Shown piece by piece: positions 264-42,063 of a stretch of DNA of 44,244 nucleotides (the stretch's first letter is position 1; every line of letters starts with the position of its first letter). Both the position numbers and the translations under genes were made by a program. The DNA comes from a virus (taxonomy: Duplodnaviria > Caudoviricetes): positions 1 to 44,244 of the IMG/VR virus record IMGVR_UViG_3300011412_000002. The stretch is one strand, 5' to 3'. The notes below the pieces were generated by a model. The model was not told where the DNA came from. It made no database searches and worked only from the letters and a program-made list of their open reading frames with translations.

Positions 264-358
264 GTCGCACCGCTTTACGAGGGGTGGGGGTAGGATGGGG
301 GCGAGATGACCGATCGGTCAGCCCCCCCCACCCCCTCCCCCTCGTTAAGCGGTGCCAC
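264..358. repeat. Composite inverted element: motif A (rev, 271-283) - palindrome B (307-320) - motif A (fwd, 339-351)
   Basis: gtcgcaccgctttacgaggggtggggg is nearly the reverse complement of ccccctccccctcgttaagcggtgccac; tgaccgatcggtca lies between them, directly after the capsid stop. Confidence 0.85.
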
Positions 359-680
359 CCGAGATCTGGGCGCCGGGGTGGCCGACCCGATCCTGGTCGT
401 TACCCTCGACGCCCGCCACGTCGAGACGGTGCTGCGGGCGCACCGCCTGCTGCGCCCCACGCTCGAATGGGCGGACGAGGTCAACCGCGCCGATCGGGTG
501 ATCGCCGTCTGCGAGCGGGCCCTGCGGATTCACCGGGACTGGATCGAGGAGCGAGAACGTGCCAGCGAAGACCGCCAAGCAGCAGAGGTTCTTCGGCGCC
601 GAGAAAGCGCGGCGCGACGAGGGCAAGGCGCCCCGCGTGAAGGGGATGTCCGACGCCGAGGTCGACAAGATGGCGCATAA
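306..680 (+). CDS. Hypothetical protein (start uncertain; 3' third overlaps the next gene)
   Basis: The central part has phage-like codon usage; the N-terminus is made of motif B and motif A sequence. Confidence 0.4.
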   Translation: MTDRSAPPTPSPSLSGATRDLGAGVADPILVVTLDARHVETVLRAHRLLRPTLEWADEVNRADRVIAVCERALRIHRDWIEERERASEDRQAAEVLRRRESAARRGQGAPREGDVRRRGRQDGA

Positions 681-702
681 GGGGAAGGGCAAGCGGAAGT
701 GA
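559..702 (+). CDS. Small basic protein, DUF3008-like (MPAKTAKQQRFFGAEKARR...GMSDAEVDKMAHKGKGKRK), not in the ORF track
   Basis: GAGGAG RBS then GTG; MPAK-x-K-x-QQ and MS-x-x-E-x-x-x-MA pattern recalled for DUF3008 phage proteins; GTGA overlap with the next gene. Confidence 0.65.
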   Translation: MPAKTAKQQRFFGAEKARRDEGKAPRVKGMSDAEVDKMAHKGKGKRK

Positions 703-1313
703 CGGCCCCCCTGCTGCGTAACGTCGCCCTGGCCACCCCGCGCTCCGGCGCCGCCGGGAGCCAGGGGCGGGTCACCGAAGCGATCGTCTCCTGCTACACC
801 GGGCGGCACTCGACGCCGTGCTACATCGAGGTGGAGTACGGCCCGACGACGTCCTACGGGACGACGACCCCCCGCACGCCCACCGCCGGCTACCACGAGA
901 TGCCGGTGAGCGGGCTGACGCCGGGCGGGTACTACCACTTCCGGGTGAAGGCGACCGACCCGACCGACGCCGGCAACCCTACCTACTCGCAGGACTACAC
1001 GTTCACCCAACCCCCCGACGTGGTGCCCCCGGGCCCCACGATCGTCAACCAACCCATGACGGGGATCACGACGACGGGGGCCACCGTCAACTGGACGACC
1101 AACCCGGCGCAGCCCCCGGGGACGGTGCAGTACTCGACCTCGCCCAGCCTCGTGCCGCTGCTCAGCGCCACCGAGGGCGGGGGCAACGTGACCACCCACA
1201 CGCGCCCGCTGACGGGGCTCACGCCGGTGACCCGGTATTACTACCGGATTGTGCAGCCGGGGGTCACCGGGGGCGCCACCGTGGGCAGCCTGCAAACCTT
1301 CCTGACCGTGTGA
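699..1313 (+). CDS. Tandem fibronectin type III (Fn3)-domain virion protein, probable capsid decoration
   Basis: Two repeats of the type V(E/Q)Y...H...(V/L)xGLTPxxxY(H/Y)(F/Y)R(V/I); located near the capsid gene. Confidence 0.75.
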   Translation: MTAPLLRNVALATPRSGAAGSQGRVTEAIVSCYTGRHSTPCYIEVEYGPTTSYGTTTPRTPTAGYHEMPVSGLTPGGYYHFRVKATDPTDAGNPTYSQDYTFTQPPDVVPPGPTIVNQPMTGITTTGATVNWTTNPAQPPGTVQYSTSPSLVPLLSATEGGGNVTTHTRPLTGLTPVTRYYYRIVQPGVTGGATVGSLQTFLTV

Positions 1314-4188: not shown

Positions 4189-5337
4189 ATGGGCAGCGTC
4201 GTCTTACTCCCCCTGGCCCCGGAGCCGGCGCTGCCGGGCGAGCCCGTCTCGCTGGCGGACGTCGAGCGGGAGACCGCCTCCCGGCTGGGCCCCTTCTTCG
4301 ACCTCGTCGCCTCCGGCGGGACGCCCGACACCGTGCTCGTCGCCGGGCTGCGCTCCAGTGCCCCGTTGGGGGGCTACGAGGGGCTGTGGCTGCTGCGCCG
4401 GGACGCCGTCCGCACCAACGACCGCGTCCGCACGGTGACCGTCTACAACGGCCCCAACGGCAGCCTGGGGGTGGACTTCCCCTACGAGGACACCCCCGTC
4501 GCCGGCGAGCGGGTCGAGCTGCACCACCTGCACCCCGACCAGCAGCTCTTCGTCGACGTCCTGGCCGCCCTGCGCCGCTGCTACCTGCTGGACACGCTGG
4601 CCGTCGCGCCCCCGGCCCCCCCGGCCGAGGCATACGTCGCCCTGGCCACCATCCGGGAGGTGAACGGCTGGGTGGTCAACGGCCACGCCGACACCACCGC
4701 CCCCACCCCCCGTGCCCCCCACCCCTCGTTAAGCGGTGCCACCCGGAGCGCCTCCGGCGGCTCGGTGGTCGACCTGACGGCGCAGGCCTTCTGGCTGCAC
4801 GACCCCCGGCAGGTGCTGGCGGTGGGCTCCGACGGGGCCCTGCTGCCCCACGTCGGGCGCTACGGGGACGACCGCGCCGGGGGCTGGACGTGCTACGCCT
4901 CGCGCGGGAGGGTGTACCTCAACGTGCCCACGGGGGTGCCCCTGGACACCCTGGTGGTGCGGGCCTACCGGGACGCCTTTGGTTTGGTGAACGGGGAGGA
5001 CGCGCCGAGCGGGCCCGTCTTCGACGGCGACGCCGACGAGCTGGCGGTGCCCCTAGACTACATCTGCGCCTTCGCCCACATCGAGGCCTGGCGGCGCCAC
5101 CGCGACCGCCTCGAAGCGAGCGCCGCCGAGGGGCGCTTCGCCACCCAGAGCGAAGCGAGCACTGAGGCCACCCGCGTCGCCAGCCTGTACGCCGACTTCT
5201 TGTTCCGCCCCCAGACCGAGCGGGGCGACCGCATCGCGCTGCCCTTCGGCGCCTCGGGTCAGACGGTGAACGGGTTGGGTGGGAGCGGGGCCCTGACCGG
5301 GGCGGTGGTGAACATCAACGATCCCTACGCCGACTGA
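4189..5337 (+). CDS. Probable head-tail adaptor / tail tubular protein A-like
   Basis: AAGGAG RBS; position between fibre and nozzle-like gene; helical C-terminus (VPLDYICAFAHIEAW). The function is inferred from synteny. Confidence 0.5.
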   Translation: MGSVVLLPLAPEPALPGEPVSLADVERETASRLGPFFDLVASGGTPDTVLVAGLRSSAPLGGYEGLWLLRRDAVRTNDRVRTVTVYNGPNGSLGVDFPYEDTPVAGERVELHHLHPDQQLFVDVLAALRRCYLLDTLAVAPPAPPAEAYVALATIREVNGWVVNGHADTTAPTPRAPHPSLSGATRSASGGSVVDLTAQAFWLHDPRQVLAVGSDGALLPHVGRYGDDRAGGWTCYASRGRVYLNVPTGVPLDTLVVRAYRDAFGLVNGEDAPSGPVFDGDADELAVPLDYICAFAHIEAWRRHRDRLEASAAEGRFATQSEASTEATRVASLYADFLFRPQTERGDRIALPFGASGQTVNGLGGSGALTGAVVNINDPYAD

Positions 5338-5365: not shown

Positions 5366-7576
5366 ATGCCCCCCACGCGCACGCGCCCCTGGCCCTACGA
5401 CCTGCGCCTCGCCTTCGTGCAGCCCGCCGTGGGCGGGCCCGGCGGGGGCACCGTCGTGGACGCCTCCGGGGAGGAGATCCTGCCGGGTGAGGTGGGGCCC
5501 GAGTACGGGCTGATGACGGCGGACGGGCACGTCGCCCGGCGGGTCGACCCGCTGGGCACGGGGACGTTCCCCGAGGCCCAGGAGTACGCCGCGAGCGACG
5601 TCTACAAGGAGCGCTCGTTCGTCTACCGGCGCCCCTTCCTGGGGATGGGGGAGCGGACGCAGAACGGCAGCACCACGCCCCGCTACTATTATGCTTGGAA
5701 CGCCCAGAGCTACCTGACCATGCGCGGGCGGGGCCCCAAGTGGCACCCCGTCGACACCGGGGCGGCGACCGAGGGCCCGGTGCTGGGCTTCGTGGAGGGG
5801 GTGCACGCCGGCGCCGTTACCCTGTTCATCCTGGCCGGGCGTTACATCCGCCGGCACGCCGGCGACCTGCTCGGGCAGTCGGTGCTGAGCCACGACCTGG
5901 GGGCCGGCAACTGGGCCCGCAGCGCCACCCGCTGGCGCACCCGGGGCCCGGCGCCCCAGGAGTTCCTGTACGTCACCGACAACCTGGCCCGCGTCTGGCG
6001 CTACGACGGCGCGGTGTGGGCCCAGGTGACCACCATCGGCACCCGCTCGATCCTGTGGTCGACGCGCGACGAGCTGTGGGGCAGCGACCTGGAGTTCGTC
6101 ACCAAGTGCGAGGGCGACCCCGCCGACCCGGCGGACTGGACGCTGCCGGTGCCCTGCGGGGACGGCACCGCCCCGGTCAACGGGATCTCGGACATCGCCG
6201 GCGTCCCCTTCTTCTTCCTCGACGACGGTTCGGTCTGGTCGATGCTCAGCGACACCACCACGCAGCCCCTGTTCCGGGGCCTGGAGACGGCCCGCAACCC
6301 GGGCAACGGGCGCAACCCGCACCAGTGGCTGGGGCAGATCTTCTTCCGCTCCGGCGCCACCCTGTACAAGCTGACGTCGGGCGCCACCGGGGCGACCTTC
6401 GAGGTGGTCGGGCCGGAGAAGGTGCAGACCAACACCGGGCCGGTGCGCGGGCCCGTCACCTGCTTCACCGGGGCCCAGGGCTACTACGGGTTCGTGGGGC
6501 AGTACAACTCGATGGCCCGCTCCCCCACCGGCTTCGAGGGGCCCTGCTCGTTCCTGCAGCGGTACGGGACGTGGGCCCCCAGCGAGGGCGACGAGGAGGG
6601 CGTGGCCGTCTTCGTGGACGGCTACGACGGGGCCCAGATCGCCTGGGAGGGCCGGGAGATCACCACCCTCGCCTACGTGGACACGGCCACGGTGACCGGG
6701 CCGGACGCCGACGCGATCGGCGCCGGCAACCCCCGGCTGTTCGCGGGCTTCGCTGACGGCGGCTACGGCTGGTGCTACCAGCCCCGGAACGGCCCCAACC
6801 CGTTCACCGCCGGCAGCGGCTGCGACTACACCACCGACCTCTCGTTCCTGCGCTGGCCCCGCCACAGCATGGACGCCCCGGCCGACCTGAAGGGCTACCT
6901 GTCGTTCGACGTGTCCGGCCCCTACCTCGACCCCTACCGTTGGGTGGACGTCGAGTACCGGATCGACGCCAACGGGGAGACCGAGCCGTGGGCGCAGCTC
7001 GCCCGCCCGCTGTGGCAGACGGCCGAGCGGTTGACCTTCCCGGCGCCGACGCTGGGCAAGATCATCGAGGTGCGCGAGCGCTACGGGGCCAGCCCGCCGC
7101 CCGACCCGCCGCCGCCCCAGCCGGCGCCCTACCCGCCGGGCCCCACGCTGGCCGAGTGGACGCGCCTGCAGACCCCGGTGGTGGCCACCCTGGTGCTGCG
7201 CGAGCAGCTCCGGCCGGCCTACCGCGCCGAGTACGCGGTGACCCTGCGGGCCACCGACTGGGCCCCCCGCCACGACGGGGGCACCTCCCGCCTGACGGCG
7301 AGGCAAATTCGGGAACTGCTGAAGCGGGCGGCGGACGCCCCGAGCACGCTGCGGATCCTGCTGCCGGACGAGGAGGCGGGCGACTTCACCTTCGTCACCT
7401 ACCAGGAGCGGATGCCCCAGGCGGGGCGCTTCAAGCGCTACGGCCAGAGCACGCTGGTGGACGTCACCGCCGTGGCCTACCGCACCCAGGCGGTGCGGGG
7501 CATCGTGGCCCGCTTCTACGACCAGACCGTGCTGAGCCTGGACGACCTGACCGTGTTGGAGTGTGACGAGCTATGA
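5366..7576 (+). CDS. Probable tail nozzle / tubular protein B-like (beta-rich)
   Basis: 736 aa, aromatic and beta-strand rich, podovirus-type synteny. Confidence 0.5.
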   Translation: MPPTRTRPWPYDLRLAFVQPAVGGPGGGTVVDASGEEILPGEVGPEYGLMTADGHVARRVDPLGTGTFPEAQEYAASDVYKERSFVYRRPFLGMGERTQNGSTTPRYYYAWNAQSYLTMRGRGPKWHPVDTGAATEGPVLGFVEGVHAGAVTLFILAGRYIRRHAGDLLGQSVLSHDLGAGNWARSATRWRTRGPAPQEFLYVTDNLARVWRYDGAVWAQVTTIGTRSILWSTRDELWGSDLEFVTKCEGDPADPADWTLPVPCGDGTAPVNGISDIAGVPFFFLDDGSVWSMLSDTTTQPLFRGLETARNPGNGRNPHQWLGQIFFRSGATLYKLTSGATGATFEVVGPEKVQTNTGPVRGPVTCFTGAQGYYGFVGQYNSMARSPTGFEGPCSFLQRYGTWAPSEGDEEGVAVFVDGYDGAQIAWEGREITTLAYVDTATVTGPDADAIGAGNPRLFAGFADGGYGWCYQPRNGPNPFTAGSGCDYTTDLSFLRWPRHSMDAPADLKGYLSFDVSGPYLDPYRWVDVEYRIDANGETEPWAQLARPLWQTAERLTFPAPTLGKIIEVRERYGASPPPDPPPPQPAPYPPGPTLAEWTRLQTPVVATLVLREQLRPAYRAEYAVTLRATDWAPRHDGGTSRLTARQIRELLKRAADAPSTLRILLPDEEAGDFTFVTYQERMPQAGRFKRYGQSTLVDVTAVAYRTQAVRGIVARFYDQTVLSLDDLTVLECDEL

Positions 7577-7613
7577 GCGGCGCCTCGCTTAACGAGGGGT
7601 GGAGGGTGGGGAC

Positions 7614-9164: not shown

Positions 9165-9427
9165 CCGAACGGTCGAACGGGGGCGCACCGCTTTACGAGG
9201 GGGAGGGGGGTAGGGTGATCGAGCTGGGCCCGGCCACCCGCAAGCAGCTCGAAGCGGTGCTCGGGCAGGCCGCCGGCGGGCTGCTGGCGGCGGTGATCGA
9301 GGCCGCCGGCTACGAGCTGGAGGACGGCTGGGCCCTGACCATCGGCCACGCCACGCTCACCCGCACCGCCCCGCAGCGCAACGGCGCCCCTCCCCACCCC
9401 CACCCCTCGCTAAGCGAAGCCACCTGA
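9161..9427 (+). CDS. Hypothetical protein bracketed by motifs B/A at the start and A at the end (alternative GTG start at 9215)
   Basis: ATGA overlap with the fibre gene; GGAGG RBS. Confidence 0.55.
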   Translation: MTERSNGGAPLYEGEGGRVIELGPATRKQLEAVLGQAAGGLLAAVIEAAGYELEDGWALTIGHATLTRTAPQRNGAPPHPHPSLSEAT

Positions 9428-11139: not shown

Positions 11140-12204
11140 GTGTGGAAGCGGGAGGTCGTCCCGACCATCCTGCTCCTGCTGTGGCTGCTGCTTGCCATCT
11201 TCCTGGCGTGGCTCGTCCTGACGGTGGTGCCGGGGACGGCTTATGGGCAGCCCGGCCAGTGCGACCGCACGCCCCCGCCCGCCGCACCGACGCCTGATCC
11301 CAGGCTGTGCGCTACGCTGACGCCCGGGAGCCCGACATGGACAGCGACGCCCAACCCGCCACCCCCGACGAGCGTATCGACGCAACCGACCCCCACCCCG
11401 CTCACCCCGTCACCAACGTCGTCGTCCACGCCGGCGACGCCGTTGTCCCCGACACCACCCCCACCAACGCCGAGTTCCGCCTCTACGACGCCGGGGGGAG
11501 GCACTACGCCACCCTCATCGCCCGCGCCATCAGCGACGGCGCCTACCGCGTCGCCACCGTCCGGTACGTCGGGCGGAAGCTGCTGCCCCTTCGTCCCCTC
11601 GACGTCTCCCACATCCTCCAGCCCGACACCCCCCCCGTCTCCGACGAGACCACCACCTACACCATCACCGTTCCCGTCGACCCCGGCCGCCCCGACCTCT
11701 ACGCCACCGCCGTCGTCCACGCCCACCTCCACTGGCACCCCGACTTCCGCCCCGGCGACCGAGGAAGCGCCCGACACAGCCACCCCCACCCCCACAGCGG
11801 CACCGACGTCCACCGCGCCTCCCTCGCCGGCCACGACGACGACCCCCACGAGCACCCCCACCCCTAACCCCTCGTTAAGCGATGCGCCCACCGCGCCTCC
11901 GGCCACCCCGGCTCCCCCGGTTGTCGTTACGGTGGTGGTCACGGTGGAGGTGGAGGTGGCGGCCACTGTCCTGGTTCCGGGCCCTGCGAGCACGGTGGTG
12001 GTGGTGGTTACGGCAACACCCGCTGCTGGAGGAGGAGGTGTCGTTCCGGGCCCTGCTGGCGGGGCTGCTGGCGATCGTGCTGTTCCAGATGCTGCTGCTG
12101 ATCCTGTCCCGCTCGTAGCTCCGCTGGTGGAGGTGGCGCTGTTGGGCGCCTCCGGCCTCGCCGGGTTGGGGCTCGGGCTGCTGCAAGTGCGGCGTGGCCG
12201 ATGA
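11140..12204 (+). CDS. Pro/Thr/Ser-rich membrane-anchored protein (N-terminal TM or signal, C-terminal TM plus RRGR)
   Basis: Hydrophobic termini with normal codon usage; long low-complexity PTS core that overlaps two nested ORFs. Confidence 0.6.
   Translation: MWKREVVPTILLLLWLLLAIFLAWLVLTVVPGTAYGQPGQCDRTPPPAAPTPDPRLCATLTPGSPTWTATPNPPPPTSVSTQPTPTPLTPSPTSSSTPATPLSPTPPPPTPSSASTTPGGGTTPPSSPAPSATAPTASPPSGTSGGSCCPFVPSTSPTSSSPTPPPSPTRPPPTPSPFPSTPAAPTSTPPPSSTPTSTGTPTSAPATEEAPDTATPTPTAAPTSTAPPSPATTTTPTSTPTPNPSLSDAPTAPPATPAPPVVVTVVVTVEVEVAATVLVPGPASTVVVVVTATPAAGGGGVVPGPAGGAAGDRAVPDAAADPVPLVAPLVEVALLGASGLAGLGLGLLQVRRGR
11337..11867 (+). CDS. Nested overlapping ORF (different frame) with His-rich C-terminus
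   Basis: GGGAG RBS 6 nt before ATG 11337; protein-like sequence (EFRLYDAGGRHYATLIARAISDGAYRVATVRYVG); the stop abuts a motif A copy. Confidence 0.45.
   Translation: MDSDAQPATPDERIDATDPHPAHPVTNVVVHAGDAVVPDTTPTNAEFRLYDAGGRHYATLIARAISDGAYRVATVRYVGRKLLPLRPLDVSHILQPDTPPVSDETTTYTITVPVDPGRPDLYATAVVHAHLHWHPDFRPGDRGSARHSHPHPHSGTDVHRASLAGHDDDPHEHPHP
11882..12118 (+). CDS. Nested overlapping ORF (third frame): Trp/Arg-rich peptide with C-terminal TM helix
   Basis: Over about 12020-12118 this frame uses G/C-ending codons almost exclusively (CTG CTG GAG GAG GAG GTG TCG TTC...), while the long frame uses GCT/GAT/GTT/CCT codons. Confidence 0.5.
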   Translation: MRPPRLRPPRLPRLSLRWWSRWRWRWRPLSWFRALRARWWWWLRQHPLLEEEVSFRALLAGLLAIVLFQMLLLILSRS

Positions 12205-12475
12205 CACCCACGAAATCAACCCGCCCCCCGACGAGCTGCGGACGCGCGCCTTCGTGGTGCGCGAGGCGGCGGCGCTGGTCTTCGTCGCCGCCTGGCTCTT
12301 GCTCTTCGCCGGCGAGCTGCTGACCGGGCGCTACACGCTCCCCTTCTGGTACGACTGCGTCGCCGTGGCCGTGCTGGGGTACGCGCTGGGAATGAATCTA
12401 GGAGAGCTGGTGGCCAAGCCCCCCAGCAAGCGGGCGGTGGCGAAGCGGGCGGTGGCTTCGCTTTACGAGGGGTAG
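12194..12475 (+). CDS. Two-TM membrane protein, holin candidate
   Basis: Two hydrophobic helices and a basic C-terminus; last gene of the lysis cassette. Confidence 0.6.
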   Translation: MADDTHEINPPPDELRTRAFVVREAAALVFVAAWLLLFAGELLTGRYTLPFWYDCVAVAVLGYALGMNLGELVAKPPSKRAVAKRAVASLYEG

Positions 12476-12485: not shown

Positions 12486-12523
12486 CAGAAGCGCCGCTGA
12501 CCGATTGGTCAGCGGCGCTTCTG
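12486..12523. terminator. Long hairpin between convergent genes, centred on palindrome B
   Basis: cagaagcgccgc-tgaccgattggtca-gcggcgcttctg; T-rich run (tttg) follows on the minus strand. Confidence 0.7.
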
Positions 12524-12581
12524 CCACCTGAGGAACCCCGCCCTGGCGCCCAAACCAGGTCGAGCCGTGACTACGGGGTTG

Positions 12582-12851
12582 CTAGGGCGTAGCGGGTACG
12601 GTGGTGGCGCGTCTCCCCCGCACCGGGGGGTTGGCCTTGTTCAAGGCGTTGCGGGCCCGGATCGCCTCCTCGAAGTAGCCGTTCAGGCTGAGCCCCTCGG
12701 CGTCCGACCACTCCCGGGCGTCCGCGAAGACGTCGGGGTTGATCCGCAACGAGGTGTTCACCTTCAGGGCGTGGCGGATGCGGCCCCAGCGGTCGTCGCC
12801 GGTGGCCTCGATCTTCTCGGCGGCGTCAGCCGCTGCGGTGGTGGTTGCCAT
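12582..12851 (-). CDS. Ribbon-helix-helix (Arc/CopG-like) DNA-binding protein, repressor candidate
   Basis: VNTSLRINPDVFADAREWSDAEGLSLNGYFEEAIR matches the RHH beta-alpha-alpha pattern; GAGGAG RBS; divergent from the recombination operon. Confidence 0.7.
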   Translation of the reverse strand: MATTTAAADAAEKIEATGDDRWGRIRHALKVNTSLRINPDVFADAREWSDAEGLSLNGYFEEAIRARNALNKANPPVRGRRATTVPATP

Positions 12852-13820: not shown

Positions 13821-14621
13821 ATGCCCCGGCCCAACCGGGCTACCACCATCCTGATCGACAGCCGGGAGCCGGCGTGGGTCAAGGTGCTCGACTTCGGGAA
13901 GGGCGCCACCGTCTCGGTGGCGCCGCTTCTGGCTGGTGATGTGCTGGCCATGTGCGACGACGGGGCGGTGGTGGCGATCGAGCGCAAGACCGCCGGGGAT
14001 TTGCTGGGCAGCCTGCGCGACGGGCGCCTGCTGGCCCAGGCCGGCGAGCTGCGGGCGATGACCCCCTGGGTCTACGTGGTGGTCACCGAGCCCCTGTACT
14101 GCGGGCGGGCCGGATTCGCCGTGTACGAGCCCAAGCGGGGGCGCACGCTGGTGGAGACGGCCTGGGCCTGGCGCGCCGTGCAGGGGGCCCTGCTGGCCGT
14201 CCAGGAGCTGGGCGTGGGGGTGGTGCTGGGCAAGGGCCAGGACGACTTCGAGGCCGACTGCCGCTGGTTGTTCGAGCGGGCCCGGGGCCCGATCGCCGTT
14301 GCACGGCGGGACACGGTGCCGATGGACGACGCCACCCGCATCCTGACGTCCATCCCCGGGGTAGGCGCCGAGCGGGCCAAGCAGTTGCTGCGCGACTGTG
14401 GGACGGTAGCCGACGCGCTGTGGGCTCTCACCGACACGCCCCGGGAACGGGGCAAGAACGTGGTGGGGGTGGGGCCCGGCACCCGGCGGGCGGCCCGCGC
14501 CGCGCTGGGGCTGACCGAGGGCTGGGTGCTGCGCGCTGCTCGGGAAGATGATTTCACTGAGGAAACGGAAGCCGATGAACGAGTACGAGCAGCTCAGGCA
14601 GCTAGCGGAAGCACTCCATAA
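13821..14621 (+). CDS. ERCC4-domain (XPF/Mus81-like) nuclease with HhH motifs; probable junction resolvase
   Basis: IDSRE, GD, ERKxxxDLxxSLxDGRLxxQ, then IPGVGAERA and VGVGPGT HhH motifs. Confidence 0.85.
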   Translation: MPRPNRATTILIDSREPAWVKVLDFGKGATVSVAPLLAGDVLAMCDDGAVVAIERKTAGDLLGSLRDGRLLAQAGELRAMTPWVYVVVTEPLYCGRAGFAVYEPKRGRTLVETAWAWRAVQGALLAVQELGVGVVLGKGQDDFEADCRWLFERARGPIAVARRDTVPMDDATRILTSIPGVGAERAKQLLRDCGTVADALWALTDTPRERGKNVVGVGPGTRRAARAALGLTEGWVLRAAREDDFTEETEADERVRAAQAASGSTP

Positions 14622-15273
14622 ATCGAGACTCTGGAAAACCGGCTCGATCGAGCAGGCCCTCGCCGTCATCCTGATGGGGCGGGAGCTGGGCATCGGGCCC
14701 ACCACCGCCCTGTCGAACATCATCATCAGCGCCGGCAAGCCCACGCTGGGCGCCTCCCTGGTGGGGGCCCTGATCCAGAAGAGCGGGCGCTACAGCTACA
14801 AGGTCACCGAGATGACCGACCAGCAGGTGTCGATCGACTTCTTCGAGGGGCCCCGCCCGCTGGGCACCTCCACCTTCACCCTGCAGGACGCGCAGCGGGC
14901 CCGCCTCTCGGCCTCGCAGACCTGGCAGCAGTATCCCCGCAACCTGCTGCTAGCCCGGGCCCTGACCAACGGGGCGAGGTGGTACACGCCCGGCGTGTTC
15001 GGGGGCGCGGTGTACGACCCCGAGGAGTTCGCCACCCCCGGCGTGCTCCCTCCCCCGGTGGAAGAGATCCCGACCGACGCGACGTTCACCCCTGCCCCCT
15101 CCCCCTCGTTAAGCGAAGCCACCATCGAGGGGCTGCTGGCTGAGTACAGTGCGGAGCAGATCGTGGCGGCGAACAACGGCAGGCTGCCGGCGACGGAGGA
15201 GGAGCTGCGTGCGGTGGCCGGACGGCTCGAACACATCCGGGAACTCGGCGGCGAGCCGGCGCCGGTGGGTTGA
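14575..15273 (+). CDS. RecT/Redbeta-like single-strand annealing protein
   Basis: ILMGRELGIGP..AL..I.I..GKP.L, FT..DA.RA.L, W..YP..LL.ARA pattern. Confidence 0.75.
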   Translation: MNEYEQLRQLAEALHKSRLWKTGSIEQALAVILMGRELGIGPTTALSNIIISAGKPTLGASLVGALIQKSGRYSYKVTEMTDQQVSIDFFEGPRPLGTSTFTLQDAQRARLSASQTWQQYPRNLLLARALTNGARWYTPGVFGGAVYDPEEFATPGVLPPPVEEIPTDATFTPAPSPSLSEATIEGLLAEYSAEQIVAANNGRLPATEEELRAVAGRLEHIRELGGEPAPVG

Positions 15274-15384
15274 CTGGGTGGCCGGCTTCGTCGCCGGGAT
15301 CGCCGTGACGCTGTGGCTGACGCGTGGTTGACGAGCGCCCTCCGGTGACGGGGGCGCTTCGCTTTACGAGGGGTGGAGGGTGGG

Positions 15385-17871: not shown

Positions 17872-17925
17872 CGAGGGCTTCGCTTTACGAGGGGGAGAGA
17901 TCGGTCGGGATTCTCCCCCGGGGGC

Positions 17926-18604: not shown

Positions 18605-18635
18605 TCCCCTCCCCCTCGTAAAGCGTAGCCACCCA

Positions 18636-27476: not shown

Positions 27477-27507
27477 TTGGGCGGCTCCTTTGGTGTGGTG
27501 TATGTCT

Positions 27508-27537
27508 ATTCTATCACAGTAGCTACCATTCATGCAA
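27508..27537 (-). promoter_or_regulatory. Sigma70-type promoter with GGTAGCTAC box
   Basis: Minus strand TTGCAT-18 nt-TAGAAT with extended TGn; half-site of B next to the -35. Confidence 0.75.
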
Positions 27538-30174: not shown

Positions 30175-30882
30175 GTGACCCCCTCCCTCCCCTCCCCCTC
30201 GTTAAGCGAAGGGAATTCGCAGGGCTCGCCGGTCGGTGCTGTGGCTTCCGAAACCGACCCCACATCGAGCGCTGCGCGCTCGGATAACCTCCCGGCCCCG
30301 CCGGACGGCGCGGCCCCGCCTACGGCCATTTCTGGCCCTCCGGCGACCATCGGGCGGGCCCGGGGCGGTCGGGTGCGAATCCGAACGGGCGCGTGGCCCG
30401 CCGGGGGCACGCCGCGGGTCGACACCAACAGCCTGGAGGCGGTCTCCGACGACGTCGCGCACTGGATCGAGACGATGGCCCAGGACGTCGCCCGGGCCAT
30501 GATGGACGGCATCCACGCCCCGTTCGCCGCCCGCATCAGCACCGAAGAGACCGCCCGCTACTTCGGGGAGACCCTGTTCAACCCGGACGGCTCGCTGGAC
30601 AGCGACCAGTGGTGGGCCGAGTACTCCCGCATCGGGCCGGACGGGCTGGCCAAAGCGATCAACGGCGGCGCCGCGTGGCGCCGCAAGATGGGGCTGCGGG
30701 TGGCCCTGCCGGTCTCGAAGTTCCAGGAGACGCCGGTGGGCCCCGCCGCAGGCGGGGTAATCGGTGTGACGCCGGCCGGGGGCTGGCCCGGCAACACCCC
30801 GCCGGGGGAGCCTGGGCCGGACGGCCCGCTGCCGGAAGAGCTGACCGAGATGCTCGGTGAGATGCGCGAGGAGACGACCTGA
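30175..30882 (+). CDS. Hypothetical virion-associated protein (start uncertain)
   Basis: TGATG coupling to the next gene; ordered central domain. Confidence 0.5.
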   Translation: MTPSLPSPSLSEGNSQGSPVGAVASETDPTSSAARSDNLPAPPDGAAPPTAISGPPATIGRARGGRVRIRTGAWPAGGTPRVDTNSLEAVSDDVAHWIETMAQDVARAMMDGIHAPFAARISTEETARYFGETLFNPDGSLDSDQWWAEYSRIGPDGLAKAINGGAAWRRKMGLRVALPVSKFQETPVGPAAGGVIGVTPAGGWPGNTPPGEPGPDGPLPEELTEMLGEMREETT

Positions 30883-33388: not shown

Positions 33389-36300
33389 ATGGACGGGATG
33401 CTGCCCCCGGTCGACACCGGCGGCTGGTTAAATTATCAGCGCCGGCGCGCTCAGCAATTTGCAAGAGAGCGGATCGCCCGGGCCGGGCAGATCGGCCAGG
33501 TGGGCGGGGACTGGCTGTCCCGCGCCGGCACCTCCCTGGACAACCTCCTGCCCGACTGGGCGAAGGAGGAGGCCCCGCGCCCCAACCTGCCCCAGATCAC
33601 CCCACCCCCCTCCCCCTCGTTAAGCGAAGGGAATTCGGGCGGCCTGCCGGACTGGGCCCGCAGCGCGAGCGACCGCATCGGGCAGATCGGCAGCGACCTC
33701 GGCGGGGTGATCGACCAGGCGCAGGGCATCCTCCCCGGCGGGGAGGCGTGGAACGCCGACTTGGAGCGCATCCGCCGGGAGCGGGAGGCGTCGGAGGCGC
33801 GGTTCCCGCAGCCGGAGCCGGGCCCCACCGGGATGGTCAACCAGACGGGTACACCGGAGGGCGAGGCGATCACGTCGGCGCTGGCCGAGACCGCCCAGCG
33901 GGAGACCCCCGGTGGGCAGTTTGCGACCAACATGGCCCGGCGCGCGGCGGGCCCGGCCTCGGGCCCCATGACGGCCGACACGCCGGTGCAGAACCTGGCC
34001 GGCATGGCCGGGCTCGCCTTCCAGAACGTCGGCGCGCCCCTGCCCGGCGGGCGGGCGATCGGCGCCGGGTTGCTGCCGGATATGGCGGCGCGGGCGGCGA
34101 CGGAGGCCATCCCGGGCGGGGAGACGTCGGTGCTGGAGGGGGCCCAGATCCCGGAGTGGGTGCCGGGGTTGGGTGGGCAGAGGCTGACCAAGGACACCCC
34201 TGTACTGGGCGGGCTGACCACCCCGGACGAGGCGATCCCGTTCGCGGTGGGGGCGAAGTACGGTGACCCCGACCAGCTCGCCGGCGGCTTCGACGACGTG
34301 CTGCGGGCCTCGCAGGGAGTGGCCCGGCGCTTCGGCACGCGGGCGGACGAGGGGTTGGGGGCGGTGGCCGGGCGGGGGCTGCGCCCGGAGCGCAGCGAGT
34401 TCGGCATCGCCGCCGACGAGTTCACCCCCCGGGACATCGAGGGGTTGGTGCTGGACGGGGCCGAGGGCACCGCCGACGAGTTGCGGGCGCTGCCCGGGGC
34501 GCCGGGGCACAGCAGCACCTCGCCGGGCGTCGCCCGCACCCGCAGCGAGCGCCCGGGCCCGGGGATGGAGGCGGTGCGCGAGGCGCCGACCCCCTACGAG
34601 TACCTGAAGGGGATGGCCTCGGACTACGAGCGGTTCCGGGACTTCTACCCCGACTTCGGGCGCTTCTACCGCAGCCTGGCCGAGCCGGCCGGGGAGCAGT
34701 CCGAGGGGCTGTTCAACGAGCTGGGGGCGATGTGGGCGGCCACGGCAGCGCAGACGGCGCCCCACGACAACTTGATCAAGGCCTTGCAGGCGTCGATCGC
34801 CGCCCGCAAGTTCCGGGAGCTGACCGGGAAGCTGCCGAACCAGGACGAACTGCTGTACCTGCTGCGGACGGGCGAGGCCGCCCCGGGGATGCGCTACGAC
34901 CGGGTGCGGGCCAACCCGAAGCTGCAGATCGAGGCGAAGCTCGACCCGGTGCTGGGCCCCGAGGGGGTCATCGCCAAGGTGCCCGAGGCGAAGCTGGAGG
35001 GGGGCGCCGCCAAGATCACCAGCGACGACGCCAAGAAGATCGCCGCCATCTGGGAGGAGGGCGGCATCGACATCCCCACCAACTTCAAGCTCACCGCCTT
35101 CAACATCCTGAACGCCCTGGCGGCGCGCAACGAGCACGCCCCCTGGAGCGTGATCGACACGCATATGTTCCGCCTCTTCGGCTACGGCGACGAGGCCCGC
35201 AAGATCAAGGCGGGCGACCTGGCCGGCAACCCCACCGCCTCACGCTACGTTCAGGCCACCGTCAAGCGGCTGGCGGACGAGCTGGGTTGGGAGCCCCACC
35301 AGGTGCAGTCGGCGCTGTGGTACGGGGCGAAGAACGAGATCAGCCGGGTCGACGTGAAGAACGCCACCATGAAGGGGGGCGCCGCCGAGTTCGCCGGGAT
35401 GCCGGAGGGCACCGTGGTGGACGACGGCACGCTGGCCTACTCCATCCAGAAGGCGTGGGACGCCGGGGTGCTGCCCAACTTCTTGAAGAACTACGCCCCG
35501 CAGGGGCCCATCAACGAGATGAGCGGCGGGGCCCGGGTGCGCTTCACCGGGCCGATCGGGCCGGGGAACTTCGGGAAGGGGCCCTCCCAAGCGCGGGGCG
35601 TTCGCCTCTCTGGCAAAGACCCGGTTACGGGCCAGAAGTACGGGCGCTTCCGGTTGGACATGCCCGAGCAGGAAGGGGCCAACGCCTGGGCTGAGAACCG
35701 GGGCTACACCACCACCGTCGACGCCGGGCCCCAGGAACTCGACGCGCTGGGCTACGACCGGGACACCGGCAAGATCCGGGCGCTGACCGAACGGTCGATC
35801 CCTCACGCGGTGACGGAGAACGTCGACGGCAGCACCTCCGTGCAGCTCTTCGCCCGGGCCGACGCGCCGGCGCAGGAGGCGCAGGACGTGCTGGCCGGGG
35901 CGCTGGGGGGCGACATCCCCCAGATGCACCGCCCGATCCTGGAGACCCAGCAGGGGCGTTTGGGGCCCTCTACGGGGCAGGCGTTCCAGCTCGATAAGGC
36001 GGACGGGGCCCGCTGGACGCTGGCCGAGGTGCAGGCCGCCCGGCGCTCCGGGCTGCCCATCCGCATGTCCCCGGACGGGTTGTCGCTGGTGGCGCGGGCG
36101 GACGACCTGCCCTCGGGGACGACGATCGCTGACCTGCAGCGGGAGTTGGAGGCGGCCGGGGCCCCGCCCCTGGAGGCGCAGGCGGTGGACGTGCGGACGC
36201 TGCCGCCCCGCACGCAGGCGCCGGGGGCGGTGGATACGGTGGGGGCCGTCGCCGGCGAGGAGGGCGCCGGCGAAGCCGGCGATGTGCAGTCGGCGCTGCA

Positions 36301-38506
36301 GCGGGCGCTGGCCAGCGTGCAGCCCTACGGCGCCGCCTCGACGCAGGGCGAGCGCACGTTCGACGTCGCCGCCGGCACCGCCGGCGGGGTGGCCGGGGCC
36401 GCCACCGCCGACGAGGACGCCACCTGGCAGGAGCGCGCCAAGCGCTTCGCCGTGGGCTCGGCCGGGGCGGCGCTGGCGGGCCCCACCGCCCGGGGTGCGC
36501 TGGGACAGCTCGCCGGGCGCAGCGCCGACACGCTCGGCGCCGCCGCCGGCGCCAGGGGCCCGCGCGGGGGCGTCCCCCGCCAACTCGGGTTGGGGGAGGC
36601 CGAGGGCGCGGGCGGCTTGCCGAAGGAGGCCCGCCGGTTGCTGACGCCCGGCGCAAACGGGGCGACGAAGCTGGGCGCCGCCACGCAGCTCGCGCAGGCC
36701 ACCCCGCTGGCCTCGATTCCCAGCCTGGGCTGGAACGCGGCGGGCGGCGTGTTCCGCACCGCCCAGCGGTACCTGCAGGACAGCGCGGGCAACCTCGACC
36801 GGCCGGCCGAGAGCCTGTCCGACCTGATCGGGATGGGGCAGGAGTTGCTGAGCGGGCGGGCCCTCAAGGCGGGGGTGAGGGAGTTCAACAAGGTCTCCGA
36901 GCGGGGGGCCTCGGCGCAGGGGCTGACCCCGGGGGGTATCTACGAATCGACCAACCCGGTGCTGCGGGGGCTCACCGCCGGGACGCGGGCGAACGCCGCC
37001 ACCGACCAGTTCTTCCGCACGCTGAACGAGGCCGGGGCGCGGGCGCGCATGGCCCGCCGGGGGGCGACCGGGCCGGAGGCGGCCGAGGGGGTCACCCGCG
37101 CCGGCGACTTCGCCTCGTTCCTGGGGAAGAGCAGCCCGGTGGCGGACGCCCTGGTCTCGGCCGGGCAGTGGGCCAACAACCGCGACCTGCCGATGGCCAA
37201 GCGCCTGCTGGGCGCCGCCACGGCCGGCTTCGCCCCCTACGTCCGCACGCCCGAGCGCATCCTGTGGGCCACCACCAAGCTGGCCAGCGACTGGGCCACC
37301 CAGCCGGGGCAGTTCGCCTACAGGCTGGCGAAGGGGGACAAGGACGCGGCGCGGGAGGCCGGGGGGCGCTTCCTGCTCTCGGCCGGCCTGGTCGGGCTGT
37401 TCGCCAACGAGTACCTGTCCGGGGCCCTGCGGGGCGACCCCCCGGCCAACCCGACCGAGCGGCGCAAGGCCGAGGCGGACGGGGCGCAGTGGAACACCTG
37501 GCGGGGGATGCCGATCTCCCGCATCGGCCCGGTGGGGGGCGCCGCCTCGATCGTCGCCACCACCCTCGCCGCCGGCGAGCGGGCGGTGGTGCGCGGGGAG
37601 CACCCCGCCGACGTCGGTCGGGACACGGTCAACGCCATCGGGCGCTGGACGCTGTCCAACTCCTACCTCGAAGACCTCCAGAACTTCAGCGAGGACGTCG
37701 CCGCCGGCCGGCTGGCGCAGGCCGCCGAGAAGCAGGCGGTGAACGTCGGCACGCGCGCCCTCTCCCCGCTCACGAGCATCGGCAGCGCCATCGACCCGAG
37801 CGAGCGCACCCGGGAGGGCACGGGCGAGGAGCTGCTGTACAAGCTCCCCGGCGGGCGCTTCTTCCTGCCCGAGCGCCTCGACCCGACCAGCGGCGAGCCG
37901 GTGCGCCGCAAGGGCAATTTCGCCTCCCGCTACGCCGGCTTCTCGCAAGGCCGGGAGACCACCCCGGAGGGCACCGAACTCTCCCGCTTCGGGGTGAACG
38001 CCCCCGAGTACCGCGCCGGCGACACCTACCAGGGGGCACCGCTCACCAGCGCGCAGGCCCGCATCCTCCAGCGCGCCTCGGGCAGCGAGATCAACCGCGC
38101 GACGCGCGAGGTGCTGGCCTCCCCCGAGTACAAGGCGGCCGACGAGGCGGGCAAGGAGAAGCAGCTCCGCGCCGCCCTCACCCGGGCCCGGGAGCGGGCC
38201 GACGTCGTCGCCGGCGAGCAGGTCAGCCGGGGCACGAAGCAGCAGGCGCAGCGGGAGTACGACGCCGTCCCCAGGTACCGGGGCGTCTCCGGCACCCCCG
38301 ACCAGATCCGCACCAAGAACGACGAGATCTCCCAGGCCAAGAGCGCCCGCAGCAAGGCGAAGAGCAAGAGCGCGCAGGCCGAGGCGGACTGGATCAAGGC
38401 GCACCCCGACGAGTACCGCCTCTCCCGGATGGAGGCCGTCGACCCGGCCCGCCTGAAGTACCAGCGCGAGCAGATCGAGAAGAAGCACGGCGTGGAGCTG
38501 GGCTGA
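33389..38506 (+). CDS. Giant (1705 aa) internal virion / ejection protein containing an alpha-helical DNA-glycosylase-like domain
   Basis: Largest ORF in the morphogenesis operon; segment K-LTAF...VIDTHMFR...[18 protein letters not shown]. Confidence 0.65.
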
Positions 38507-38507: not shown

Positions 38508-39719
38508 ATGGCGAACGAGCCGGACTGGGTCAAAGACCTCCTGGGGTCGAGCGCCACCACCTACCGCCCACCCGAGCAGCGCACGAGCGGGGGCGACGAT
38601 GACGTGGCGGGCTACATCCGCAGCGCCGCCGCCAAGCGGGGCATCGACCCGGAGACCGCCATCAAGGTGGCCCAGAGCGAGGGCGGGTTGGTGCCCAACC
38701 GCACCGGCTCCTTCAAGACGGGCAAATCGTTCTGGCCCTTCCAGCTCCACTACGGCGGGCCCGGCTACGAGCAGTTCGGCACCACCGCCGGGATGGGCAA
38801 CTCGTTCACCGCCCAGACCGGGCTGCAGCCCGGCGACCCCAACGCCTGGCGGCAGGCCACCGACTACGCGCTCGACGCCGCCGCGAAGAACGGCTGGGGC
38901 GCCTGGTACGGGGCCCGCAACGTGGGCGTCACCGGGCGCCAGGGCATCGGCACCGCCCCCTCCGCTCCCGCCGCCGCGGCTCCCGCTGCGACCGATGGGG
39001 CCCCGGATTGGGTGCGCGATCTGATGGGAAGTTCGGTTGCGGGGAGAAACGGTCAGCCCCTTATCTCCACCAACAACAGCAATACGGAAGCCCCCGACTG
39101 GGTGCGCGACCTCCAGGCCTCCTCCCCCTCGTTAAGCGGTGCGAGCAGGAGTACGCCGAGTTACGCCGGTGCGGCGCAGACCGACGAGATCTGGCCGGTG
39201 GCGGGGCAGCGCTGGGGGCAGGTCAACAACCCCTTCGGCGGCACCCAGGCGCGCAGCGCCGGCGCCACCGTGGCCCTACCCAGCCAGAACGTGGGCGCCG
39301 ACCTCACCGCCCGCTACGGGGCCCAGGTGGTGGCGCCGGTCTCCGGCACGGTCGTGGAGGCGTTCGACGCCCCCAACGAGACCGACCGCAACGCCAACCA
39401 CGGCTGGGGCGGGATGACCCTGCTGCGGGGCGACAACGGCTACTTCTACCGCATGAGCCACGCCAAGCCCGGCAGCGTCGCCGCGCAGCCGGGGCAGCGG
39501 GTGGCGCAGGGGCAGCCGCTGCAGCAGGTGGGGGTGAGCGGCAACACCACCGGGGCCCACCTGGACTACGAGAAGTTCGACCGCCCCGGCCACTTCGTCG
39601 ACCCCGTCCAGGGTCGGGGCGGTACAGTGGCTTCGCCTAACGAGGGGCGGGGGTCTGCGGTGACCGATCGGTCACCAACGATGCCCGACTGGGTGCGCGA
39701 TCTGATGGGAGCCAGGTAG
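38508..39719 (+). CDS. Virion-associated peptidoglycan hydrolase: lysozyme/transglycosylase-like domain plus M23 peptidase domain
   Basis: IRSAAAKRGIDP..AIKVAQSEGG...PFQL...GWGAW; then GADL.A.YGAQVVAPVSGTV...SH...GQRV..GQ....VG.SGNTTGAHLDY. Confidence 0.8.
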   Translation: MANEPDWVKDLLGSSATTYRPPEQRTSGGDDDVAGYIRSAAAKRGIDPETAIKVAQSEGGLVPNRTGSFKTGKSFWPFQLHYGGPGYEQFGTTAGMGNSFTAQTGLQPGDPNAWRQATDYALDAAAKNGWGAWYGARNVGVTGRQGIGTAPSAPAAAAPAATDGAPDWVRDLMGSSVAGRNGQPLISTNNSNTEAPDWVRDLQASSPSLSGASRSTPSYAGAAQTDEIWPVAGQRWGQVNNPFGGTQARSAGATVALPSQNVGADLTARYGAQVVAPVSGTVVEAFDAPNETDRNANHGWGGMTLLRGDNGYFYRMSHAKPGSVAAQPGQRVAQGQPLQQVGVSGNTTGAHLDYEKFDRPGHFVDPVQGRGGTVASPNEGRGSAVTDRSPTMPDWVRDLMGAR

Positions 39720-41648
39720 ATGCCGGACAACAACCCGTACCCGAACAGTCCGGCGAATTGGTTCCTGGATTGGTGGGCCCAGCAGCAGGCGAAGCGGTTG
39801 GGGACGCCGGTGCCCGGCACAGTTCCGGCGCCGATCCAGGCGCCCGGGGCCCCGGGGGGCTTCGTGGCGCCGGGGAACCCGGCGGCGCCGGGTGGCCCGA
39901 GCACGGATTTTGGCCCGGCCCCGAGCACCTCGACGGCTGCGGTCGACACCTACGACACCACGTACCCGTACCCGGAGAGCACCACCGACGACCTGGAGCG
40001 GTACGAGAACAACCGCAAGAAGATCGAGAACGACGTCCACGAGGTCGGGAAGATCCTGAGCGACCCGACCAAGCCGGCCGACCACCCCGACAAGATCGAG
40101 GCCCAGAAGCGCCTCGACACCTACAACATCCAGTACCAGGCGGCGATCGACCGCATCGCCCAGGAGAAGAACCGGCGGGCGGACAACGCCCGGGCGGACG
40201 CCGACAAGCAGCGCCAGATCGACAAAGAGAGCAAGGCCGAGGCCGAGAAGCGCGACGCCACGCCCAAGAACGGCGACACGCGCAACATCCTGCGGGAGTG
40301 GACGGATCCGCAGGGGCGCAAGATCACCGGCATGGTCACCGAGACCTACAACAACGGGGTCTGGGGCTACGTCAAGGGCAGCGCCACCGCCGACACCGGC
40401 ATCCCCGCCGGGCCCGGCGAGCGGCCCTCGGTCATCACGGACGGGCAGGGCACCTACTGGACGGTCGACCCGACCACCGGGCAGGCCAGGTCGATCACCG
40501 GCCCGAAGGCGGCGGCGAAGACCATCACCGACCCGGACGGCAACATCTGGCTGCAGAACCCGGACGGCACCAAGGGCTCCAAGCTCTTCGACGCGGCGCC
40601 GAAGACGGTCACCGACAACGGGCGGATCATCGCCTACGACCCCCGCAGCGGGGCCAAAATCTTCGAGACCGACACCAAGACGCCGGAGGGCCGGGCCCTG
40701 GCCGACCGGCTGGAGCGGGCCAACGTCGCCGCCGCCGAAAGGCAGGCCGACCCCCAGTTCGCCAGCGCGATCGCCCAGTACCGGGCCGAGGCCCAGCGCC
40801 GGCAGGGCCTCGCCCGCACCGAGTTGGCCCGCCTGCAAGACCTCCAGAAGTCGGGGCAGCTCAGCCCGGAGATGGCCGAGGCGCAGTTCGACACCTGGAT
40901 GCAGACCAACGTCGAGGGGCCCCTGGCCGGCTTCAAGGCGGCCGCCGAGCAGGAGCAGCGCAAGCTGGAGCAGGAGAACCTCACCCGGCAGAACGCCGAG
41001 GAGGGGCGCGTCGAGACCGCCAACCGGGAGCGGGGGCGCCTCGCCTACGAGGCCGACACCGCCGGCCGTGCCATCTCCCGGGAGATCGCGCAGCGCACGC
41101 GGGCCCCGGAGTTCATCCGGGACACCGGCAAGCTGGCGGCCTCGCTGGCCAGCGGGCGGACGGACTTCGCCTTCTCGCCCGAGAGCCTCGACCCGGCCAA
41201 CTTCAAGAAGGCCCTGCCCAACATGGACGAGCTGGCGGACAAGGCGGTGCAGCGCCTGTTCTCGTTCGTCCCCGAGGCCCGGGCTCGCAACGTCAACGTG
41301 CCCCTGCCGGAGATGCCCTCGGGCGATAACCTACGGGGCATGATGGATCAGGTGCGGTACACCCCTTCCGCCGGCGCCGCGGGCGGCGTCGGGGCCGGCA
41401 GCCAAGTGGCCGAGGGGCAGGGCGCGGTCGATCTGAAAGACCAGGGGCGGCCGGGCTGGGCCCGCACGGTCTACCAGAACGGGAAGTACGAGGACTGGGA
41501 GATCCCCACCACCTCCTCCGGCCAGATCGCGCAGCTCGCCGCCGGGGCCCCGCCGCCGGCGATGGCGAGCGGCGGGCTGCCCGGCCAGCAGGAGGGCGAG
41601 ACCGAGGAGCAGCGTCAGGCGCGCTGGCGGGCGATCATGTCCCGCTAA
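39720..41648 (+). CDS. Probable internal virion / ejection protein (coiled-coil plus short beta repeats)
   Basis: ITDGQG/ITDPDG/VTDNG beta-hairpin repeats and long helical segments; operon context. Confidence 0.55.
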   Translation: MPDNNPYPNSPANWFLDWWAQQQAKRLGTPVPGTVPAPIQAPGAPGGFVAPGNPAAPGGPSTDFGPAPSTSTAAVDTYDTTYPYPESTTDDLERYENNRKKIENDVHEVGKILSDPTKPADHPDKIEAQKRLDTYNIQYQAAIDRIAQEKNRRADNARADADKQRQIDKESKAEAEKRDATPKNGDTRNILREWTDPQGRKITGMVTETYNNGVWGYVKGSATADTGIPAGPGERPSVITDGQGTYWTVDPTTGQARSITGPKAAAKTITDPDGNIWLQNPDGTKGSKLFDAAPKTVTDNGRIIAYDPRSGAKIFETDTKTPEGRALADRLERANVAAAERQADPQFASAIAQYRAEAQRRQGLARTELARLQDLQKSGQLSPEMAEAQFDTWMQTNVEGPLAGFKAAAEQEQRKLEQENLTRQNAEEGRVETANRERGRLAYEADTAGRAISREIAQRTRAPEFIRDTGKLAASLASGRTDFAFSPESLDPANFKKALPNMDELADKAVQRLFSFVPEARARNVNVPLPEMPSGDNLRGMMDQVRYTPSAGAAGGVGAGSQVAEGQGAVDLKDQGRPGWARTVYQNGKYEDWEIPTTSSGQIAQLAAGAPPPAMASGGLPGQQEGETEEQRQARWRAIMSR

Positions 41649-41770
41649 AGCCAGGACAGCAGGATGCGCCAGCCGATGATCGCCAGCCCGGAGGCGACGT
41701 AGCCCGCCATCCCCACCCCGAGCACCAGCACCAGCAGCAGGAAGGCCCACTCGATCGGGTGGATCTTCAC
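41645..41770 (-). CDS. Small membrane protein (MKIHPIEWAFLLLVLVLGVG...), not in the ORF track
   Basis: GTGA overlap with the upstream minus-strand gene; entirely hydrophobic. Confidence 0.5.
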   Translation of the reverse strand: MKIHPIEWAFLLLVLVLGVGMAGYVASGLAIIGWRILLSWL

Positions 41771-42063
41771 ACCCCCCACCCCTCGTAAAGCGAGACCACC
41801 GGGGACGACAACCCCGGGTCGAAGGCCAGTGCGCCCCGGTCGCGCAGGAAGCGCAGCCGGCGCACGCCCCGCTCCAGCAGGTGGCGCACCGCCAGCTCCG
41901 TCTTGCCCAGCTCGCGCGCGATCGAACGCAGCGAGCGGGGCTGCCCGTTGGCGACGCCCAGCGCCCGGTAGAGCACCACGCGCTCCTCCCGGGGTAGGCG
42001 CCGCAGGTGGTTGATGAGCAGGGCCGTCAGCTCTTCGGGGGTCAACGGTTCGTCAGCACTCAT
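41767..42063 (-). CDS. Sigma70 region-4 HTH domain protein (stand-alone)
   Basis: LRRLPREERVVL....G......SLRSIARELG.T...VRHLLERGVRRLR. Confidence 0.8.
   Translation of the reverse strand: MSADEPLTPEELTALLINHLRRLPREERVVLYRALGVANGQPRSLRSIARELGKTELAVRHLLERGVRRLRFLRDRGALAFDPGLSSPVVSLYEGWGV

Follow-up and report, generated by a model that had tools for sequence, protein, structure and literature searches.

Phage genomes have long been known to hold dispersed repeats whose function is a puzzle; the repeats of Cluster O mycobacteriophages and the nicks of T5-type phages are examples. The IMG/VR virus record IMGVR_UViG_3300011412_000002 raises the question again. The window analysed here is the whole 44,244-nucleotide stretch, a complete circular phage genome of 44.1 kb and 72% GC whose ends overlap by 123 nt. 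A directional word of about 29 bases, motif A, is written into it 23 times, on both strands, in genes as well as in junctions. What does such a word serve, and what reads it? Our tentative answer is that the array consists of start sites for the phage's own archaeo-eukaryotic primase (AEP) Prim-Pol/D5 helicase, and that the sites are homogenised by copying between neighbours.

Evidence that motif A is selected as DNA

An earlier note on this DNA had placed 23 cores, and all of its coordinates and orientations proved correct. Twenty sites possess the exact core CCCTCGTWAAGCG and three (9404, 26864 and 39634) differ from it by one mismatch; 14 lie on the plus strand and nine on the minus strand. 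The word is asymmetric, with no dyad symmetry. It is conserved between roughly -7 and +8 relative to the core and reads CCCC(TC/CA)C-CCCTCGTWAAGCG-RWGCCACC. The extended consensus of the earlier note agrees with this overall, except for a single W column, since the 5' tract is either CCCCTCC or CCCCCAC, in two registers.

The copy number is well above shuffled expectation. In 100 dinucleotide shuffles the exact core occurred 0.00 times on average, compared with 20 in the genome, and the core with up to two mismatches 1.77 times, compared with 24. When the codons of 47 open reading frames (ORFs) were shuffled synonymously 1000 times, a mean of 0.55 and a maximum of 3 in-gene sites appeared, against 12 in the phage. 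With a weight matrix, none of the 23 sites scores below 31 bits, and the interval from 10 to 31 bits is empty. The information in a site is ~35 bits, whereas 12 bits would suffice to locate 23 sites in the phage genome and 19 in a 5-Mb host. Together with the dialect switch in relatives described below, the synonymous shuffle and the weight matrix support the earlier proposal of a dedicated cis-acting system in which selection acts on the DNA rather than the protein. One argument made for it, the rare TTA codon in the PSLS peptides, has to be dropped. The other core variant gives a TAA stop in that frame, so TTA is forced and is not independent evidence. In-gene sites on the sense strand use a single frame throughout and encode PSLS or PSSS.

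The motif had not been recognised from any described system. No description of it was found in the literature searched, which covered few subscription journals and excluded supplements, and Rfam gave no match. In IMG/VR the core pattern was found at 31 loci, with one match each and all on separate contigs.

Flanks are shared by neighbouring plus-strand sites

Successive plus-strand sites have 7.5 of 12 identical bases in their 3' flanks, compared with 5.7 after permutation (P 0.00075, post hoc). The signal is present at +1 to +4 (P 0.02), +5 to +8 (P 0.006) and +9 to +12 (P 0.009) and is gone at +13 to +27. Identity falls with distance, from 7.5 to 6.4 and 5.1 at lags of one, two and three sites. 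Sharing is strand-specific, as neighbours taken regardless of strand show none (P 0.23). The clearest shared tracts are GGGAATTCG at 26486, 30196 and 33614, TAGCCACCC at 18613, 21889 and 23707, and GTGCCACCC at 339 and 4723. Flank sharing recurs in a second dialect of the motif (P 0.022, n=15). Because coding and intergenic sites both share their flanks, protein constraint does not explain the pattern. As far as sequence can tell, flanks are likely to have been copied between neighbouring same-strand sites, which is a simpler reading than the alternative, position-specific selection on classes of flank. Copying between neighbours would also explain the surplus of information in the sites and the lack of decayed ones. 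Of the 23 flanks, 14 begin with A and five with G.

The 14 plus-strand sites are evenly spaced at ~3.2 kb, with a coefficient of variation (CV) of 0.37 (P 1.5e-4). The evenness persists when a minimum gap of 1 kb is imposed (P 0.014) and when orientations are permuted over fixed positions (P 0.0016); for all 23 sites pooled it is not significant (P 0.085). Neighbouring sites less than 800 bp apart are oppositely oriented in 8/8 pairs (P 0.002), the number of such pairs being that expected by chance (8 vs 7.6). Close pairs are opposite in 3/3 cases in the related contig L034 and in 2/3 in the related phage L155/L139, and opposite-strand sites lie 33–77 bp apart in three genomes.

Relative to transcription, as judged from our own gene calls, 12 sites are G-strand-sense and 11 C-strand-sense. 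Nine of the 12 former lie at junctions and nine of the 11 latter in Pro/Ser linkers, a split that coding tolerance can account for. A replichore polarity centred on 21.2 kb, where the split is 8:2 on the right side and 6:7 on the left, was considered and rejected, as it is confounded with transcription and absent from L034.

Orthologous sites carry different dialects

Two related phages keep the frame CCCCTC-N6-CG, mostly at orthologous positions and in the same orientation, with the core swapped throughout. The central core is GTWAAG in this phage, GYCATA in the second phage and TRGAGG in L034. The second phage has 11 CCCCTC-GYCATA-CG sites on a 23-kb contig (L155+L139) and four on L047, which was taken as the same phage; L081 and L162 are 99.9% the same DNA as L155+L139. 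L034, whose capsid is 85% identical, has seven CCCCTC-TRGAGG-CG sites in 12 kb. When matched by flanking genes, 10 of the 11 L155+L139 sites have a same-orientation counterpart here; one of these ten, beside 41780, occupies the same place in a different gene. Between dialects PSLS becomes PSPY in gene 4189, in RecT, in TerL and in two small genes. The three dialect matrices found no cross-dialect site or relic in the genomes compared.

Sites are also gained and lost. Those at 9189, 11869 and 39634 lack counterparts in the L155/L139 phage, and two L047 sites are displaced by one junction. In turn, this phage has no counterpart to a site in the L139 J-domain gene or to one that L034 carries in a conserved part of its giant protein. 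The site at 4723 lies in an insertion of 35–55 residues in gene 4189–5337 that is missing from 3/3 motif-less homologues. Peptides suggest a fourth dialect: TerS homologues have AFYEG, AFNEG, AFDEG or AFSEG in 7/18 and ParB-like homologues PSLNA in 2/18, these being known as proteins only.

No site of any dialect was found in seven loci from other relatives (G003, G002, L074, L077, L032, L033 and L035, partly redundant; capsid 78–82% identical). G003 is the only complete genome among the motif-less relatives; it is temperate and lacks Prim-Pol, RecT and the whole early module.

Motif A as proposed priming sites

The putative reader of motif A is encoded at 18673–21081 on the plus strand by a gene that joins an AEP Prim-Pol to D5_N and SF3 helicase domains (Pfam PF09250, PF08706 and PF19263; TIGR01613). 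PF09250 matches residues 12–165 with an E value of 1e-13, and a candidate cognate AEP Prim-Pol is thereby encoded beside motif A sites; the helicase part matches PDB 7ola (E value 2e-21). In the mechanism we propose, Prim-Pol would bind the core on single-stranded DNA and lay a short DNA primer over the 8–12 bases beside it, about every 3 kb. The primer or nascent end would then re-anneal to the following site of that template, possibly aided by RecT, and the flank would be copied forward. RecT-type proteins anneal short strands at forks, and the RecT-like annealing protein encoded at 14548–15273 (plus strand; PHROG 561 and 4171) is a possible helper in such site-to-site copying. A fork or rolling circle that travels round the whole genome would use the complete plus series, with the patchier minus series for the other direction, and the core would change in step with primase specificity.

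A strand-specific event every ~3 kb with a footprint of 8–12 nt beside the core fits a DNA primer, the shared flank bases having the length of the DNA primers made by AEP primases. The primer made by ORF904 of pRN1 is 8 nt long and lies directly 5' of a GTG motif (PMC2034472). RepB' of RSF1010 makes DNA primers of 10–12 nt, dATP first, on the 40-nt sites ssiA and ssiB on opposite strands (PMC8567376). The Prim-Pol-helicase of phage NrS-1 primes with dNTPs at TTTGGTTA or GTGG (PMC8718748), and T7 primase has about 26 preferred sites that are partly flank-defined (PMC12839067). In further support of priming, a Prim-Pol-helicase is encoded here and not in the complete motif-less G003, and one site (21093) adjoins origin-like repeats.

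Several results weigh against this interpretation. The flank test was post hoc, the pattern having been seen before testing and several windows tried, and a 5' block at -20 to -14 also gave P 0.03. Flank sharing is not significant in the third dialect (P 0.29, n=7) and is not seen in the minus series (P 0.61), whose nine sites are not evenly spaced either (P 0.18). Even spacing alone does not mean priming, since a second repeat, motif B, is palindromic and as evenly spaced as the plus series (CV 0.37). There is no conserved replichore polarity. None of the contigs of motif-bearing relatives yielded a Prim-Pol, and its absence from G003 does not single it out because G003 is without the whole early module. 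A ~35-bit site greatly exceeds the 12–19 bits needed, and most known primase sites are 3–8 nt long. GTGG is found on the G-rich strand in only 11/23 flanks. No hairpin is conserved across sites, which have no common fold of the ssi type, and residues 166–300 of Prim-Pol gave no Pfam helix-bundle match.

Compared with the AEP primase sites of RepB' (PMC8567376), pRN1 (PMC2034472) and NrS-1 (PMC8718748), motif A is alike in its strand-specific, asymmetric sites on both strands by an AEP gene, and the 8–12 nt primers of those systems equal the neighbour-shared tract in length. It differs in that ssiA and ssiB are single-copy in the origin and need a hairpin, and GTG and TTTGGTTA are short, whereas motif A has 23 long copies through genes, with lineage dialects. 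Motif A most likely works like a primase site, although it falls outside the described families. What sets this array apart is the dialect switch at orthologous sites and the apparently neighbour-copied flank; no description of neighbour-copied phage sites was found in the literature searched.

The proposal can be tested sharply: one site is known in three sequenced dialects, a candidate enzyme is at hand, and the primer footprint is predicted to cover +1 to +12. If priming is true, the phage primase has a long, retunable recognition code that could be used as an orthogonal priming tool. Neighbour copying would in that case let short dispersed sites evolve in concert by a route not met in the literature searched. 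A stronger form of the idea, which we regard as rather doubtful, is a self-propagating replication password, in which primers made by the primase jump to the neighbouring site and replace its sequence, and the ~23 long sites thereby evolve in concert. A change in primase specificity would then sweep the genome, and sister phages would lose the ability to replicate each other's DNA or to recombine with it stably.

Other readings of the array

We also considered whether a phage DNA-binding protein might dock at motif A on double-stranded DNA, which is possible but not what we expect. The protein would be the RHH-like product of 23329–23691 (minus strand, labelled by eye), a sigma-R4 or a wHTH protein. 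Together with motif B and the ParB-like protein it would organise, protect or silence the genome, and RecT-driven direct-repeat conversion would account for the shared flanks as a side effect. The RHH-like protein is the main rival candidate reader, being just 39% identical to its L047 homologue in the other dialect, with two N-terminal types among the homologues. The dialects resemble the co-divergence of repressors and stoperators (PMC6550527), 5/13 copies of motif B have a motif A core less than 100 bp away (P 0.006), and all eight close pairs of motif A are opposite in orientation. These pairs are, however, no more numerous than chance predicts, and one of the three in the L155/L139 phage has the same orientation. 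Docking predicts neither even spacing by strand nor a tract that ends at +12. The usual operator network would include weak sites, whereas none scores between 10 and 31 bits. Two sigma-70-like promoters were found and neither overlaps motif A, and sites in L047 move between gene junctions with their spacing kept. Should this rival be true, motif A would still be a genome-wide self-recognition system with switchable specificity.

It is unlikely that the sites are programmed nicks of the T5, phiKMV or tf type, cut by an HNH, ERCC4 or PD-(D/E)XK nuclease, with the nicked end converting the flank of the next copy. Several nucleases are encoded in the window, and a nick predicts one-sided conversion as well as a primer does. 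A close parallel is found in the sci nick sites of phiKMV-like phages, T5-like phages and tf (PMC3517423). In tf, 14 asymmetric sites with a sharp consensus are spread over 46 kb (~14 per 45 kb on one strand; compare the 14 plus sites here), and relatives have them at similar positions with an altered consensus. The sci sites described in that report are, however, shorter and all on one strand, whereas nine of the 23 sites here lie on the other strand, with opposite sites 33–77 bp apart. HNH-like genes are present in motif-less G003 too.

Two options raised in the earlier note fare worse. Mimicry of a host self-signal (Chi-like, uptake-sequence-like or a nucleoid-protein site), with dialects standing for different hosts, is very improbable. 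Neisseriaceae DNA uptake sequences (PMC3630211) are likewise dispersed words with species dialects around a shared core, but they are chromosomal, number thousands of copies and are read in transformation, and no host counterpart of motif A was found. The 20-nt form of motif A gave 15 single matches in GTDB (14 in Streptomyces, in two homologous contexts, and one in Salinibacter), with no genome having two. The core with at most one mismatch occurred 13–17 times in four genomes, compared with 10–17 for a reversed control, so that 4/4 genomes tested show no enrichment. Relatives with capsids 78–82% identical carry no dialect at all. The 14 Streptomyces genomes (L167–L176 and L178–L181) each have one identical 20-nt match.

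Least probable of all are true stoperators, sites at which a repressor halts elongating transcription in a lysogen. The Cluster A mycobacteriophages (PMC9283540, PMC6550527) do have 20–30 asymmetric genome-wide sites whose consensus differs between relatives, as the 23 copies here do between lineages. Two defining features fail: orientation is 12 vs 11 relative to transcription, and there is no sign of a temperate phage with integrase or parABS. Neither integrase nor ParA, nor a separate DNA polymerase, was found among the 49 ORFs scanned, 22 of which went through a further scan; the phage is apparently not temperate, and its temperate relative G003 lacks the motif. Motif A is moreover about twice as long as a stoperator and is often in essential genes, with many sites in virion genes. 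Another comparison is the 17-bp repeat of Cluster O mycobacteriophages (PMC4351075), which occurs in and between genes of a non-temperate phage with a ParB-like protein and has no link to transcription direction. That repeat is palindromic and fits motif B well, whereas motif A is asymmetric and has dialects.

Individual sites of motif A

On the plus strand, the core at 339–351 is in frame (PSLSG) in the small ORF 306–680, and its L081 counterpart (ORF 5692–6081) reads PSPY. The core at 4723–4735 lies in the gene earlier labelled 'adaptor', which has no family match. That at 9404–9416 (one mismatch) had not been counted as in-gene; it forms the C-terminus (PSLSEAT) of the small gene 9215–9427 and corresponds to PSPYAER at L139 11728. 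The core at 11869–11881 is intergenic, that at 15103–15115 is in the RecT linker (PSLSE, PSPY in the homologue), and that at 18613–18625 lies between the VWA and Prim-Pol genes. The core at 21889–21901 encodes part of the TerL N-terminus (PSLSV, PSPY in L047), the core at 23707–23719 separates leftward wHTH-like and RHH-like genes, and the one at 24716–24728 lies directly beyond the stop of the leftward HNH gene 24738–25079. The shared flanks of 26486–26498, 30196–30208 (N-terminus of gene 30175–30882) and 33614–33626 (inside a 1705-residue protein) contain the only three GAATTC of the genome. The core at 39126–39138 is in an M23-domain protein, in whose linker L034 has a site in reverse orientation, and that at 41780–41792 occupies the final codons (SLYEG) of the sigma-70 region-4 gene.

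On the minus strand, the core at 271–283 lies 12 bp past the capsid stop, is the first of an inverted pair flanking a copy of motif B, and has same-orientation counterparts at L139 3374 and L034 11148. The core at 7586–7598 is at the junction 7576/7614 (counterpart L139 10019), that at 9189–9201 is past the tail fibre stop, and that at 12459–12471 forms the final codons (SLYEG) of gene 12194–12475. The cores at 15360–15372, after RecT, and 17881–17893, ahead of the VWA gene, are intergenic. The core at 21093–21105 is 12 bp past the Prim-Pol stop and adjoins the origin/cos-like repeat region. The remaining two have one mismatch each: 26864–26876 is in the linker of the ParB/KorB-like protein (PSSSA) and 39634–39646 near the C-terminus of the M23-domain protein (SPNEG).

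A GCGNAGC mini-hairpin word is formed by the core end and flank in 10/23 sites (9404, 12459, 15103, 15360, 17881, 18613, 21889, 23707, 24716 and 39634), and other dialects do not keep it. Mini-hairpins of this type have been linked to priming origins (PMC13037366).

Motif B and the ParB-like protein

Motif B is the palindrome YGACCRNNYGGTCR, present in 13 copies between 307 and 42141 (at 307, 5335, 9162, 12498, 15890, 21812, 24155, 26056, 27946, 33130, 35784, 39661 and 42128). The evenness of its spacing is significant (P 3e-4). It is unchanged in all motif-A phages, absent from motif-less ones, and encoded as DRSV in the tails of 17/18 TerS homologues. Both divergent intergenic regions contain a copy (27946 and 42128). 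At 12490–12524 two convergent genes are separated by a GC hairpin with motif B in its loop, a layout repeated at L139 14152.

The protein encoded at 26556–27533 (minus strand) has a predicted ParB/KorB/SopB-like DNA-binding domain without the N-terminal CTPase domain. The fold match is middling (Z 6.1–6.5, root-mean-square deviation 3.3–5.0 over 100–115 aligned residues), the Z score being tied with unrelated helical matches and below Raf1. Among the 50 structure matches listed for this protein, the one protein folded, no repressor of the HTH plus stoperator-domain type appeared, and no cultured match of the protein was found. As a reader of motif A it was rejected, because its predicted recognition helix is near-constant over 19 homologues with different embedded dialects. 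Judging from the model, it more likely reads the palindromic motif B. A second RHH-like protein, encoded at 12582–12851 (minus strand) behind a sigma-70-like promoter, is 81% identical across dialects.

Genome content and relatives

Besides the fusion of Prim-Pol with a D5/SF3 helicase, the phage has genes for capsid, TerL, RecT, an ERCC4 nuclease, a PD-(D/E)XK nuclease, J-domain and VWA proteins, HNH-like proteins and a number of small proteins that bind DNA. The nearest cultured capsids, of Arthrobacter phages, are only 38% identical. IMG/VR searches with the portal, Prim-Pol and ParB-like proteins and a GTDB search with the capsid found no relative. No convincing inversion joint between sites was found among the joints listed for the contigs, and contigs cannot show absence.

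The J-domain protein of the 16850–18604 region has an N-terminal domain that is HARP-like by eye and without a Pfam match; the VWA protein is next, with Prim-Pol directly downstream. The AT-rich region at 21116–21345, between the Prim-Pol and TerS genes, is a candidate origin or cos/pac; it is an inverted region of 49% GC with four 18-bp repeats seen nowhere else. In G003 (L086 2100–13900) the shared virion genes are combined with another, temperate early module (serine integrase, HTH repressor and methyltransferase), so that one structural module is found with two lifestyles. The N-terminal half of the giant protein is swapped between relatives, with a TnsA-like endonuclease (PF08722) in L034 (66–800) and an unassigned domain in the window (33389–38506).

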